DNA of 64,000 nucleotides from Minisyncoccota bacterium (GTDB taxonomy: Bacteria > Patescibacteriota > Minisyncoccia > JAHISW01 > Tagabacteraceae): the NCBI GenBank assembly GCA_028711505.1, contig JAQTSC010000001.1, positions 168,604-232,603 on the forward strand. Reading direction: 5' to 3'. A program made the position numbers and the translations under genes. How positions within the stretch are numbered: the first letter of the stretch is position 1; each line of letters starts with the position of its first letter. The notes under the pieces are model-generated. The model saw only the letters and a list, made by a program, of their open reading frames with translations, had not been told where the DNA came from and did not search any database. Below are positions 8,913 to 14,542 of the stretch, piece by piece.

Positions 8913-9068
8913 GTAAGTGTCAAAAAAATATAATTTCCGATAACTCGATTACGCGCGAAGTGATTTCACTTATTATACATAATATCGCCAGTTTTATGAA
9001 TATCATGTATTATTTATTTACTAGCCTTGATTATAAGGGAAAAAACTAATGGATATCTTCTAAAAAAT

Positions 9069-9944
9069 ATGGACAAAGCCAGAATCGTATTCTTCGGCAC
9101 GCCGGAATTCTCGGTAAAAATTCTTGAGGCGATGAAAAACGCCTGTTTTTTGCCGGCACTTATAATTACCGCTCCGGACAAGCCAAAAGGACGCGGAATG
9201 AAAATGGCTCCCTCTCCCGCAAAAGCTTGGGCGGAAAAAAACTGCATAAATCATATTGAACCGTCCTCTCTTAAAAAAGACCCCGAAATAGCGATAAAGC
9301 TTTCGGAAATGAATCCCGACCTTTTTGTAGTAGCCTCTTACGGAAAAATTCTCCCGAAAGAAATTCTCGATGTCCCCCGAAAAGGCACGTTAAATGTCCA
9401 TCCTTCGCTTCTTCCCAAGCTCCGCGGCGCGTCGCCTATTCAAGGAGCAATTTTATCGGGTGAAAAAGAAACCGGAGTAACCATTATGCTTATGGACGAA
9501 AAAATGGACGAGGGTCCAATTTTGGCCAAACAAAAATTGGAATTTCCGATTGCCAATTTAAGATTTTCAGAACTGGAACAAGAGCTTGCGGAGTTTGGAG
9601 GAAAAATTCTGACGGAAACAATTCCGAAATGGCTAAATGACAAAATAACTCCGCAACCGCAAGACCACTCACAAGCCACTTACACCAAACTCATTAAAAA
9701 AGAAGACGGTGAAATAAACTGGAGCGAGCCAGCAGAAGCAATTTTTAGAAAAATACGGGCATATACTCCTTGGCCCGGAGCTTACACTTTTTATAACGGA
9801 AAAAGAATAATAATAGCTGACGCCGAAATAAAGAATGACTCGCTTGATATTAAGCGAGTCAAACCCGAAGGCAAAAACGAAATTTCTTTTAAAGAATTCT
9901 ACAAAAACAATCCCGAATTTCCTAATTGCCGAAAATCTGAATAA
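9069..9944 (+). CDS. fmt: Methionyl-tRNA formyltransferase
   Basis: ARIVFFGTPEFS, LNVHPSLLPKLRGASPIQ (the SLLP motif), plus the C-terminal Fmt domain. Start moved to the internal ATG at 9069. Confidence 0.9.
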   Translation: MDKARIVFFGTPEFSVKILEAMKNACFLPALIITAPDKPKGRGMKMAPSPAKAWAEKNCINHIEPSSLKKDPEIAIKLSEMNPDLFVVASYGKILPKEILDVPRKGTLNVHPSLLPKLRGASPIQGAILSGEKETGVTIMLMDEKMDEGPILAKQKLEFPIANLRFSELEQELAEFGGKILTETIPKWLNDKITPQPQDHSQATYTKLIKKEDGEINWSEPAEAIFRKIRAYTPWPGAYTFYNGKRIIIADAEIKNDSLDIKRVKPEGKNEISFKEFYKNNPEFPNCRKSE

Positions 9945-11565
9945 ACGGCCACAAGATAATTCCTAAAACAGACGGCGCCGCTTCATAAGAAGTTGGAAGC
10001 GATTCCGCGCTCGGCGCTGGTTCAACACTCGGCGGAACTATCTCTACTTCAATATGAGGAACTTCCACTGTGGGAACGTATTGTTCTCCCGCAGGCATTT
10101 GTTCTACTGGAGGCCTCATTTCTCCCGGGGGCAATTGCTGGTAATTGACAGAAGGCGGAACATATCCTACTCCCTGTCCGCTGTCATCCATAGGCATATA
10201 ATTACCTCCTTCTTGCGTCCTGTAATTTTCATCTCCAGGAGGCATTCCCATATCTCCTCTTTCCGGAAATTGAATTTCTTGCCGAGGCATCATCTGCGCT
10301 TGCTCGCCATTAAAGTCAGGATATTGCCCTGACTCTCCGCCAGGAGGACCGTATATTATGTCTCCCTGCTGTGGCTGTGGCATCATACCTCCTTCGCCGG
10401 GAGACATAGGGGGCATCATTCCTTCTTGAGGCATCATGCTTTCTTGAGGCTGCATCATAAAAAATTGCTGCATTCTTTGAGCTTGGTCCATCTGCTGCAT
10501 CATGCCTTGAACTCTGTCTTTGCTCATCATCCCGGTATCGGCCGCGAAATTCGCGCACTCCTCAATCCGCGCCGGATCGCCGCAATAATTGCTGCATTCT
10601 TCAATTGACCTGCATCCTCCTGGTCCGGGCTGCTCTCCCATTTTACCGATAATACTCATCTGTTTTTCCATCATTATCGCTTCTTCAGGAGAAAGAAGTC
10701 CGCTTTCTTTTGAAAAATTGAAACAAGTTTCCCTATTTTCTTCTTTACTGCAAAACGCGTCGCATTCTTCCGTGTTTTTACATCCTCCGGGACCGCCAAT
10801 GCTCATCATCTTCTGCGCTTTTTCAGCTTCTTCTCGCGGCATAAGTCCATGCTCCACCGCAAAATTCATGCACTCTTCCATACGGCTCGTATCGTCGCAA
10901 TACGCTTTGCACTCTTCGGGATTTTTACACCCTCCGGGACCCGACCCTGCCGCTTCAAGAATTTCCATCGCTTTCTGTTCGTCAATTTCCGGCCCTTTCG
11001 GCTTACCAATATCTCCCTTCGCGATTTTAATCATAAAATCTGCTTCTTCCTGGGAAATTTTTCCTTCATCAACCACAAATTTCATACATTCTTCTATATT
11101 ATCGCGATTTTTACAATAACTGTCGCAATTTTCTCTTGACTGACATCCGCCAGGCCCTCCCTTTGCCGCTTTTTCTCTTATCTTGTCCGCCTCTTCCGCG
11201 GAAGTGTATCCGTTTTGAACTCCGTAATTAAGGCACTCGTCAAGATTCTCCAAAGACCGGCAATACATATCGCAAGATTTCGGAGTGGTGCATCCACCCG
11301 GTCCGGCAACAGGGTCCTCGGGCTTATTTTCCATCTGCGCCATATCCTCCATCCTTTTGGCTTCCATCGCTGAAAAAACTCCCCGGCTTTTGCCCCACTC
11401 AATGCAAGAAATTTGATTGGCTGGATTATCGCAATAAATTTTGCATTCTTCTTGCGAATTGCAGCTGCCAAGCTCGGCAATCGGATAAGAAATTTCCAAG
11501 GGGTTTTGCGCCGAAACGACAAACCCCGCAAAAAGCAAAATCGCGATTAAAATAATTTTTCTCAT
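9922..11565 (-). CDS. Secreted protein with six tandem 4-Cys modules (GPGGC-x5-C-x3-C-x9/10-C) and a Met/Gln/Pro-rich C-terminal tail
   Basis: Signal-peptide-like N-terminus MRKIILIAILLFAGFVVSAQ. Repeats are separated by EEA-helix linkers. C-terminal hydrophobic stretch LGIILWPFIQIF. Confidence 0.7.
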   Translation of the reverse strand: MRKIILIAILLFAGFVVSAQNPLEISYPIAELGSCNSQEECKIYCDNPANQISCIEWGKSRGVFSAMEAKRMEDMAQMENKPEDPVAGPGGCTTPKSCDMYCRSLENLDECLNYGVQNGYTSAEEADKIREKAAKGGPGGCQSRENCDSYCKNRDNIEECMKFVVDEGKISQEEADFMIKIAKGDIGKPKGPEIDEQKAMEILEAAGSGPGGCKNPEECKAYCDDTSRMEECMNFAVEHGLMPREEAEKAQKMMSIGGPGGCKNTEECDAFCSKEENRETCFNFSKESGLLSPEEAIMMEKQMSIIGKMGEQPGPGGCRSIEECSNYCGDPARIEECANFAADTGMMSKDRVQGMMQQMDQAQRMQQFFMMQPQESMMPQEGMMPPMSPGEGGMMPQPQQGDIIYGPPGGESGQYPDFNGEQAQMMPRQEIQFPERGDMGMPPGDENYRTQEGGNYMPMDDSGQGVGYVPPSVNYQQLPPGEMRPPVEQMPAGEQYVPTVEVPHIEVEIVPPSVEPAPSAESLPTSYEAAPSVLGIILWPFIQIFGN

Positions 11566-11568
11566 ATT

Positions 11569-11835
11569 TTATTGAGCGAAAGGATTTTTATAAGCGTCTT
11601 TAAAAGGATTGGCCGCATTTTCTATGTCATTAAAAACATTGGCTTCTTCCACAACCTTTGATAATTCATCGTCTTGCGCTTTCTTCTGCTCGGCCAAAAG
11701 TTCGGAACGTCCGGTTTCCTTGCCGGAAACCACGCCCGCTGAAAAACCCTTATATTCACCATAATAATAACCGCCGAAAAGGCCCACAAACAAAGCCACA
11801 ATGGGCAAGACCATCAAATATGTTTTTTGACTCAT
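11569..11835 (-). CDS. Small single-pass membrane protein
   Basis: 88 aa. TM helix LMVLPIVALFVGLFGGYYY. Confidence 0.45.
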   Translation of the reverse strand: MSQKTYLMVLPIVALFVGLFGGYYYGEYKGFSAGVVSGKETGRSELLAEQKKAQDDELSKVVEEANVFNDIENAANPFKDAYKNPFAQ

Positions 11836-11930
11836 TTTGTTAAAAAATTAAATTAGTAATTGTCATTTACTCCATTCTACAACAAAACTCCCCCCTGGGC
11901 GGGAGGAGTTATCCACAAAAAAAGAAGAAA

Positions 11931-12254
11931 TTACGATTTTAATTTTTTTTCCTTGAAATCACGTATTTCTCTGCGCGCCCTTTGGTTGGCTTTGTCTATC
12001 GCTTGGCGCCATGTTGCACCGTTTCCCTCAGCCCTGATTCCCTTTGCCGCTCCCGGAAAAATTATTTGCATTTCAGCCCTAAAAACATCTCCCTTGCTGT
12101 GTTTTTTAACTCTTTCTATTTCAATTTCAACTCTCCAGTCAACCCCTGTTTTTTTGGAAAATTTTTCAACCATTATTCCCGCTTTTTTTTCTACGAAATC
12201 GCGGGTTTTTTCTTCCAACTCAAAATTTGTCGCCTTAAGATTTAAATTCATCAT
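11931..12254 (-). CDS. hpf: Ribosome hibernation-promoting factor / RaiA (YfiA) family
   Basis: 107 aa with sigma-54 modulation protein family features (VEIEIERVKKHSKGDVFRAEMQI...). Confidence 0.8.
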   Translation of the reverse strand: MMNLNLKATNFELEEKTRDFVEKKAGIMVEKFSKKTGVDWRVEIEIERVKKHSKGDVFRAEMQIIFPGAAKGIRAEGNGATWRQAIDKANQRARREIRDFKEKKLKS

Positions 12255-14125: not shown

Positions 14126-14542
14126 TTAAACCTCTATATTCTTCGCCTCTTTTCTTATCACTGCCCAATGATAAAGATACAAAGGCAGACCTACTATTAT
14201 CATCGCCAAATTTATAGAAGCATCCCGCTGGCGCTGGCTTGATACCGGATCAACTTTATCGGATTGTTCTTTCCAAATTTTATAATCAGCGATAATTCTT
14301 TGCATTTCCGCCCTTTCGGTTTCCGTGAGCTGCTCTCCAGCCGCGGCTTTTTCTAAATTTTCAACAGGCGCATACACAGGCAATATTTTTGAACTGACTC
14401 TCTGCTGGTCATCGGCGCCGGTAAAGACAAACGCCTTAAGCCCCATGTTTATAAACCTCACTCCCGCAATGACCATAAGCGTAAGCCCGACAAGCGAAAA
14501 CAAATAAAGATAAATCGTTCTTATTATTGTTTGTTTTTTCAT
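14126..14542 (-). CDS. Membrane hypothetical protein
   Basis: 138 aa with an N-terminal TM. Confidence 0.45.
   Translation of the reverse strand: MKKQTIIRTIYLYLFSLVGLTLMVIAGVRFINMGLKAFVFTGADDQQRVSSKILPVYAPVENLEKAAAGEQLTETERAEMQRIIADYKIWKEQSDKVDPVSSQRQRDASINLAMIIVGLPLYLYHWAVIRKEAKNIEV

Follow-up and report, generated by a model that had tools for sequence, protein, structure and literature searches.

A gene on the minus strand of the 64,000-nucleotide stretch of Minisyncoccota DNA analysed here (the window; contig JAQTSC010000001.1, positions 168,604 to 232,603) encodes an exported protein of 547 amino acids (aa) in which a four-cysteine helical module is repeated six times. The module appears to define an undescribed domain family within a familiar class, the exported, cysteine-stabilised helical repeat proteins. 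Just upstream lies a second, small gene, missed by an earlier reading of the same letters (the original prediction), whose product is a predicted membrane protein ending in an NPF peptide. The explanation preferred for the pair, held tentatively and with slightly less than an even chance of being right, is that the repeat protein would be a disulfide-stapled helical scaffold of the cell envelope working with its small partner as a membrane tether. Patescibacteria, the candidate phyla radiation (CPR), account for much of the diversity of bacteria, and nearly all that is said of their envelope and surface biology is deduced from "hypothetical proteins". The 547-aa product is one of these, being identical to the NCBI hypothetical protein PHC85_00860 from a metagenome-assembled genome (MAG) of Candidatus Pacebacteria; the CPR labels carried by this protein and by its homologues agree with the kind of organism that the original prediction had supposed.

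All 24 cysteines of the protein fall into six groups of identical spacing, C-x5-C-x3-C-x8-C. The original prediction had described six GPGGC modules with the pattern C-x5-C-x3-C-x9-10-C in repeating units of about 45 aa. Six copies are indeed present, and the x5 and x3 spacers were read correctly; however, the last spacer is x8, the GPGGC entry occurs in five modules, with LGSC in module 1, and the period is uneven, the cysteine groups lying 49-72 residues apart because the linkers between them differ in length. The repetition itself withstands statistical scrutiny. When residues 21-375 were shuffled 200,000 times, no shuffled sequence contained two or more matches to the pattern and 1,112 contained one, against the six observed, and a hidden Markov model (HMM) of the family module detects six domains in the window protein, with E-values of 7e-20 to 6e-26. 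The module consensus reads GPGGC-[KR]-[SG]-x-x-E-C-x-A-[YF]-C-x-[DN]-P-x-[NH]-x-E-E-C up to the fourth cysteine and continues x-x-F-A-x-x-x-G-[LF]-[MI]-[SP]-x-E-E-A, position 20 being Asn in 56% of modules and His in 40%. All four cysteines are retained in 2,340 of 2,343 unique modules, and the CX3C spacing is kept in all but 4 of 1,930 anchored modules. The outer spacers vary (x4 or x5 between C1 and C2, x6 or x8 between C3 and C4), with the spacing classes (5,3,8), (4,3,8) and (5,3,6) making up 79%, 13% and 6% of the modules.

Scans of the window protein against Pfam and NCBIfam gave nothing above threshold, and neither did sequence searches of the PDB with the whole protein and with the module profile. 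The statement of the original prediction that the cysteine pattern fits no recognised domain has thus stood, there being no Pfam, NCBIfam, PDB sequence or fold match, and it was also right to call the pattern unlike that of ferredoxins: the CxxCxxCxxxCP motif and a Pfam Fer4 match are both absent, and the only ferredoxin match in the PDB has an E-value of 0.25. Sub-threshold Pfam matches, below the curated cut-offs, were obtained to SPP1_GP23-1, DUF2680 and SHOCT-like families, and span some 15-20 residues of the capping-box third helix of the module. It is this helix of the module, with the pattern G-h-h-S/P-x-E-E-A-x-x-h-K, that resembles SHOCT, DUF2680 (YckD) and SPP1 gp23.1 (matches to these are also precomputed for a few homologues); those families are without the four-cysteine element. 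The Helicobacter HcpA-E (Sel1-like) proteins are likewise exported and consist of tandem short helical repeats with cysteines inside the repeat. Weak Foldseek matches to TPR/SLR-type solenoids such as LapB and AlgK (E at least 0.15, TM about 0.1) are not significant, and a Pfam scan at E up to 10 found no Sel1 (PF08238) or TPR match in the window protein. An Hcp/Sel1-like unit has two helices, 36 residues and one disulfide, whereas the module here has three helices, four cysteines and at least 47 residues. No description of the GPGGC motif, or of the family among cysteine-rich CPR surface proteins, was found in the searchable literature.

In an AlphaFold2 (AF2) model of the whole protein, built with a 120-sequence alignment, the predicted local distance difference test score (pLDDT) exceeds 90 over most of residues 30-370, and each module forms three helices. 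The score falls below 50 at residues 187-190, which suggests that the protein is split into two three-module blocks joined by a linker; this linker carries a conserved extra helix at residues 196-206 (IDEQKAMEILE). Residues 377-532 are mostly disordered in the model and are followed by a C-terminal helix at 534-546. Structure prediction of one module, a check that the original prediction had proposed, gave a clear answer: module 4, modelled alone with the module alignment, folds into three helices at module positions 8-15, 21-30 and 36-47 with a mean pLDDT of 92.4. In this single-module model, C1 lies in the GPGGC turn, C2 and C3 (the CX3C pair) lie on one face of helix 1, and C4 lies in the first turn of helix 2.

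This arrangement bears on how the cysteines are used. A disulfide between residues i and i+4 of a helix is sterically unfavourable; the likely pairing, judged from the model, is therefore C1-C3 with C2-C4, or C1-C2 with C3-C4. Paired loss of cysteines gave no signal about connectivity, only three of the 2,343 unique modules being without any one of them. The conserved Glu-Glu pairs before C2 and before C4 form the first turns of helices 1 and 2, a position that fits helix capping rather than metal ligation. Kazal domains, which are extracellular and disulfide-dependent, occur in the same polypeptide as the modules in five homologues (P0050, P0064, P0085, P0089 and P0102); a Pfam scan found no Kazal match (PF07648, PF00050) in the window protein. 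An MdbA-like thiol-disulfide oxidoreductase, in many cases encoded next to VKOR, is over-represented in CPR genomes (PMC6744442; bioRxiv 10.1101/335083). Disulfides are plausible because of this enrichment, the Kazal co-occurrence, the Glu-Glu helix capping and the Sec-type export described below, and the context favours them over metal binding; the retention of all four cysteines and the near-constant CX3C spacing are also in keeping with them. Most likely, the four invariant cysteines of a module would pair into two disulfides that hold it together. If so, the modules would be abundant substrates for the MdbA/VKOR machinery. A motif screen for a thioredoxin-like CxxC oxidoreductase in the window, which is only 64 kb of the genome, yielded no convincing candidate, the single match lying in a 90-aa open reading frame (ORF).

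The signal-peptide-like start noted in the original prediction, and with it the claim of secretion, is supported by the family as well as by the protein itself. In the window protein, MRK is followed by a 14-residue hydrophobic run and by a cleavage site after VSA and before QN; of 120 homologues, 104 begin with a basic stretch, and a hydrophobic core and an AxA-like cleavage site are shared features of the family. The window protein (starting MRKIIL) has no twin-arginine motif, and an RRxFL-like sequence occurs in only 2 of the 120, which argues that the protein crosses the membrane unfolded and hence against a pre-loaded cofactor. The mature N-terminal segment has the family motif (I/V)x(Y/F)P(I/V)xELGNC. 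The protein as a whole is strongly acidic, with an isoelectric point of 4.35. As the original prediction had seen, its last 170 or so residues are of low complexity and rich in Met, Gln, Pro and Gly; the composition of residues 376-547 is 17% Pro, 13% Gly, 10% Glu, 9% Gln and 9% Met. Tails are highly variable across the family, and their methionine content has a median of 6%, reaching 17% in some and 0 in others, compared with 2.2% in long ORFs elsewhere in the window. (Some homologues have a beta-rich insert of about 80 aa, containing …FDFTVMDSDGVASFSFK…, which lies in or beside the tail in P0021 and P0065 and at the N-terminus in L023; the Kazal domains of other homologues are in or near the tail.)

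At least 487 homologues of the 547-aa protein were scored; the names given to them are all generic or uninformative, and their labels comprise Parcubacteria lineages, Gracilibacteria and others. The best 120 have 3-10 strict modules, six being the commonest number. Their common layout is a signal peptide, a first module with ELGNC, a series of GPGGC modules, a low-complexity tail and a C-terminal helix with the motif LLGxxLxPFLxIF(R/K), and the window protein shows it in full, from an ELG(N/S)C first module through the C-terminal LLGxxLxPFLxIF helix. A module profile made from 123 diverse modules and run against 1.84 billion representatives of 50% identity clusters matched 1,916 proteins at E <= 1e-3 and 1,092 at E <= 1e-30, with 6-13 modules each among the matches listed (150 of the 1,916). 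A degenerate DNA pattern scan of the GTDB species genomes returned at least 120 loci. Among the matches listed, multi-module ORFs occur in Harrison-, Lloyd-, Nealson-, Jorgensen-, Azam-, Ryan-, Wolfe-, Colwell-, Yanofsky-, Nomura-, Kaiser-, Uhr-, Andersen-, Davies- and Woesebacteria and in generic Patescibacteria MAGs, and the HMM and pattern matches together span many Parcubacteria and Microgenomates lineages. The homologues in other CPR genomes for which the original prediction had suggested looking are therefore plentiful, and the module family appears to be patescibacterial wherever lineage could be checked.

Exceptions to this distribution were followed up. Thirteen loci of named non-CPR taxa, among the matches listed, show 0-1 pattern match and look like chance. 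The label "uncultured Gammaproteobacteria" of locus L016 was rejected, since the product of the mercury(II)-reductase-like gene adjacent to the repeat gene matches a protein of Candidatus Daviesbacteria at 100% identity. The ORF at this locus (L016:2152-3603, plus strand) has six 35-residue units without the third helix, which suggests that the minimal unit is the cysteine turn with two helices. Family members also occur on contigs labelled Candidatus Pacearchaeota (L042:6630-8000, minus strand, on a contig that has a RuBisCO large-subunit gene and cysS) and "uncultured archaeon" (L094:1-975, minus strand); for these, mis-binning, mislabelling and CPR-DPANN transfer could not be told apart. 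A search with tblastn of 50,697 phage records, made with a phage origin in mind, gave no match. A further family of CPR proteins, 880-1,270 aa long, contains a single copy of the module, GPGGCRxxxECFxYCSxPxNGxECIAFGAK (L010, L020, L063, L086, L102, L109, L110 and L117); of the eight proteins scanned, a set that also took in the two-module L022 and L055, six had no Pfam match. The module is thus mobile and occurs outside the six-module protein as well.

Within the six-module proteins, each module has its own identity. When 65 of them were compared at non-cysteine positions only, module i of one protein and module i of another had a mean identity of 0.32-0.45, compared with 0.19-0.30 for non-matching module positions between proteins and 19-35% for pairs of modules within a protein. 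That a module is closest to the module at the same place in other proteins argues that the six-module layout predates the divergence of the lineages; on this evidence the layout is ancient, with constraints particular to each position.

The partner gene, which encodes the 88-aa NCBI hypothetical protein PHC85_00865, stops 3 nucleotides (nt) before the start codon of the six-module gene. The same arrangement was present in all four homologue contigs that were fetched. In a wider survey of 65 loci with enough upstream sequence, a partner was defined by a transmembrane segment near its N-terminus together with two or more NP[FYW] motifs, and 54 of the loci have one as a small upstream ORF of 67-137 aa on the same strand, at a distance of -41 to +152 nt. 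The C-terminal part of the partner follows a set plan: in 49 of 64 the final pair of NPx motifs is spaced by 8 residues, in 38 of 62 the last NPF has a Tyr two residues ahead of it, as in NPFxxxYxNPF, and the protein ends 0-2 residues past the last NPF in 52 of 62. In the homologues, as read from their sequences, basic residues precede the transmembrane segment. This points to an N-in, C-out topology, by which the NPF peptide would share a compartment with the repeat protein; the partner is accordingly predicted to cross the membrane once, as a bitopic protein whose N-terminus is cytoplasmic and whose C-terminus is external. It diverges fast, having seven sequence matches, of which the two that are named are each a "hypothetical protein". 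Clustering of the flanks of 94 loci for other conserved neighbours returned only the small NPF gene and ORFs antisense to the repeat gene. To all appearance, the small NPF gene and the repeat gene form one bicistronic unit, and in the window this pair is flanked on both sides by terminator-like hairpins (Table 1). Between the unit and the upstream hpf, the gene for a ribosome hibernation factor (11931..12254, minus strand), lies the stronger-looking sequence of the two named there, a strong terminator-like hairpin that probably ends the hpf transcript and that would place the unit's own promoter in a gap of roughly 50 nt. (The idea that NPFD or NPLE, found at the mature N-terminus of the window protein and its close relatives, mimics the NPF of the partner was rejected as a general feature, xPF being found there in only 6 of 64 proteins of the wider family.)

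These observations can be joined in a single scheme. Six three-helix modules, arranged in two blocks of three and each stapled by two disulfides, would form the N-terminal two-thirds of a Sec-exported, acidic envelope protein, to be followed by a disordered spacer rich in Pro, Gly, Glu, Gln and Met and by a short amphipathic C-terminal helix. The repeat protein and its partner would be expressed from one two-gene unit, and the partner would present its NPFxxxYxNPF peptide on the outer side of the membrane. The two proteins may form a complex at the outward-facing side of the membrane, in which the partner, the C-terminal helix, or both would hold the cysteine-repeat scaffold at the cell surface, and this complex may be a conserved structural or organising element of the patescibacterial cell envelope.

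The partner bears on how the scaffold would be retained. The layout of the repeat protein is that of Gram-positive surface proteins, with a cleavable signal peptide, tandem domains, a Pro-rich spacer and a C-terminal hydrophobic segment, and in this family the segment often ends in Arg or Lys, as does a sorting signal. The hydrophobic C-terminal end reported in the original prediction is present as the helix at 534-546, but across the family it is a short amphipathic helix and not a transmembrane anchor. The last 30 residues of family members often include Asp or Glu, and the uncharged run in them has a median of only 9 aa; this suggests an amphipathic helix rather than a transmembrane segment, too short and too amphipathic to act as a stop-transfer signal. 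LPxT[GASN] is absent from the window protein, and just one homologue in 120 has it within the last 60 aa. A C-terminal membrane anchor and a sortase signal were both rejected on these grounds. The partner is thereby an attractive tether; at the same time, both findings count against the scheme, in that they leave its means of retention in doubt. Other points also weigh against the scheme. The invariance of the four cysteines would fit a Cys4 metal site equally well, and disulfides are less to be expected in the anoxic waters that many Patescibacteria inhabit. Apparent co-transcription is the sole link between the repeat protein and its partner. The number of NPF motifs and the number of modules give a Spearman rho of 0.29 with a loose motif and of 0.09 with strict NPF, values that leave a one-to-one stoichiometry unsupported. 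Finally, fold searches gave no informative analogue.

A more specific version of the scheme is possible, if doubtful: the modules may be a new peptide-recognition domain into which the NPFxxxYxNPF peptide docks, the two proteins together making a two-component envelope system that is spread across Patescibacteria and has so far been found only there. Were this so, the partner would fix an acidic, disulfide-rich rod at a set distance from the membrane, where the rod might organise, for example, the zone of the wall, S-layer or pili in these ultra-small cells. A domain with some 1,900 clusters, a conserved six-module layout and a conserved operon partner, of which the curated libraries and the PDB as searched have no entry, gives structural and cell biologists a concrete, testable protein pair and domain databases an obvious family to add.

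That the modules are instead Cys4 sites for Zn(II), Cu(I) or Fe, and the protein an extracytoplasmic metal buffer, scavenger or detoxifier, is unlikely, although several features speak for it. The four cysteines are near-invariant and are not lost in pairs, position 20 of the module is Asn or His, the protein is strongly acidic, and the methionine of the tail, above the window background, could together with Met-rich third helices help to capture soft metals such as Cu(I); MMP-type motifs are reminiscent of those, likewise rich in Met, with which periplasmic copper proteins bind Cu(I). The copper-storage proteins Csp1 and Csp3 and the Met-rich periplasmic copper proteins indeed share helix cysteines, including CX3C, and Met-rich extracytoplasmic segments with the protein described here. 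However, a Csp protein is one four-helix bundle whose core is lined by many cysteines and is not built from tandem mini-domains of four cysteines each, and Csp1 and Csp3 have no sequence or fold match to the window protein. Two ligands at i and i+4 on one helix would give a non-standard Cys4 geometry, the C1-C2 and C3-C4 spacers are variable, and Met enrichment is not universal. Export by Sec without Tat (the twin-arginine system) would mean that metal is loaded outside the cell, and apart from the insignificant ferredoxin hit there is no sequence or fold match to a known metal-binding domain.

The original prediction had suggested that the repeat could be a surface or adhesion module of an epibiont, disulfide-stabilised or metal-binding. 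A host-attachment adhesin, with modules that bind a ligand on the host surface and a tail that acts as a flexible stalk, would suit an extracytoplasmic, repetitive, cysteine-rich protein of lineages thought to live on other cells, and the variable tails, sometimes with Kazal or beta-rich extra domains, point the same way. Yet the modules are positionally conserved across divergent lineages and habitats, the gene lies amid the housekeeping genes def, fmt, hpf and uppP, in a wider neighbourhood that is not itself conserved, and no recognisable wall or membrane anchor was found. The positional conservation and the housekeeping context would be less expected of a host adhesin that evolves fast than of a protein with a conserved role in the envelope, and adhesion is consequently rated rather improbable, as a somewhat poorer prospect than metal binding.

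It is very improbable that the protein is a precursor cut into six free, cysteine-rich antimicrobial or signalling peptides of the defensin or alpha-hairpinin kind. Small tandem disulfide modules in a single exported precursor would suit the idea, as would a sub-threshold Pfam match to the defensin-like PF25052 (E 0.009; precomputed for three homologues). Plant alpha-hairpinins are also tandem within a precursor and carry C-x3-C ... C-x3-C on the helices of a hairpin. Like the window module, they are cysteine-held helix-loop-helix structures with CX3C on a helix; the window module differs in having one CX3C only, its other cysteines being single ones in the entry turn and helix 2, in adding a third helix, and in showing no evidence of processing. 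In the AF2 model, blocks 1-3 and 4-6 are continuous and confident through most linkers, and no conserved processing site was noted in the linker columns of the module profile, which were not formally tested for one. Each module position has its own conserved identity, and free peptides would leave the conserved tail and C-terminal helix without a role.

That the ORF is no real gene, arising by chance or lying antisense to a better-supported gene as the original prediction had allowed, has next to no probability and is refuted by the homology and structure results: ORFs of 90-176 aa do lie on the opposite strand within 10054..11139 (for example 10589..11119, plus strand), but for the ORF on the minus strand at least 487 homologues were scored, among which signal peptide, modules and C-terminus are conserved, and its product has a confident AF2 model; the plus-strand ORFs are only shadows of the repeat. 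GPGGC on the opposite strand reads ...PPGP..., making the antisense ORFs mirror images of the repeat. Their equivalents cluster across 51 and 36 other loci, and they recur there because they overlap the same repeat gene; such ORFs could be mis-called as genes.

Table 1. Features of the repeat gene and its surroundings, in window coordinates
Feature	Coordinates	Strand	Basis
Whole gene, 547 aa and stop	9922..11565	-	ORF list; homology search
Sec-type signal peptide, aa 1-19 (MRK, hydrophobic core, VSA before Q)	11509..11565	-	sequence; AF2 helix 2-17
Conserved mature N-terminal segment, aa 20-34 (QNPLEISYPIAELGS); packs onto module 1	11464..11508	-	alignment, AF2
Module 1, aa 31-77, variant entry LGSC, Cys 35/41/45/54	11335..11475	-	Cys pattern, HMM
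Module 2, aa 88-133, GPGGC entry, Cys 92/98/102/111	11167..11304	-	Cys pattern, HMM
Module 3, aa 137-183, Cys 141/147/151/160	11017..11157	-	Cys pattern, HMM
Linker between three-module blocks, aa 184-208	10942..11016	-	alignment, AF2
Module 4, aa 209-255, Cys 213/219/223/232	10801..10941	-	Cys pattern, HMM, single-module model
Module 5, aa 258-304, Cys 262/268/272/281	10654..10794	-	Cys pattern, HMM
Module 6, aa 314-360, Cys 318/324/328/337	10486..10626	-	Cys pattern, HMM
Low-complexity acidic P/G/E/Q/M-rich tail, aa 376-532	9970..10440	-	composition, AF2
Conserved short C-terminal hydrophobic/amphipathic helix, aa 533-547 (PSVLGIILWPFIQIFGN)	9925..9969	-	alignment, AF2
Partner gene, 88 aa: N-terminal transmembrane anchor, charged spacer, C-terminal NPF (...ANPFKDAYKNPFAQ)	11569..11835	-	ORF list, loci comparison
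Terminator-like hairpin upstream of the unit (between hpf and the small NPF gene), 10-bp stem, 6 G-C pairs, T-run	11886..11910	-	consensus scan only
Terminator-like hairpin about 60 nt past the stop codon, inside convergent fmt	9836..9861	-	consensus scan only

The repeat gene has as its neighbours def, fmt, hpf, a PEBP-family gene, uppP and thiI. Its 3' end overlaps that of the convergent fmt (9027..9944, plus strand) by 23 nt, at 9922..9944. The fmt ORF as called starts at a TTG, and the formyltransferase N-terminus (…RIVFFGTPEF…) appears about 16 codons later; the true start is probably the ATG of MDKARIVFFG. A DUF5671 membrane protein, encoded at 14126..14542 on the minus strand between uppP/bacA and thiI, is another uncharacterised, envelope-associated protein near the repeat gene.

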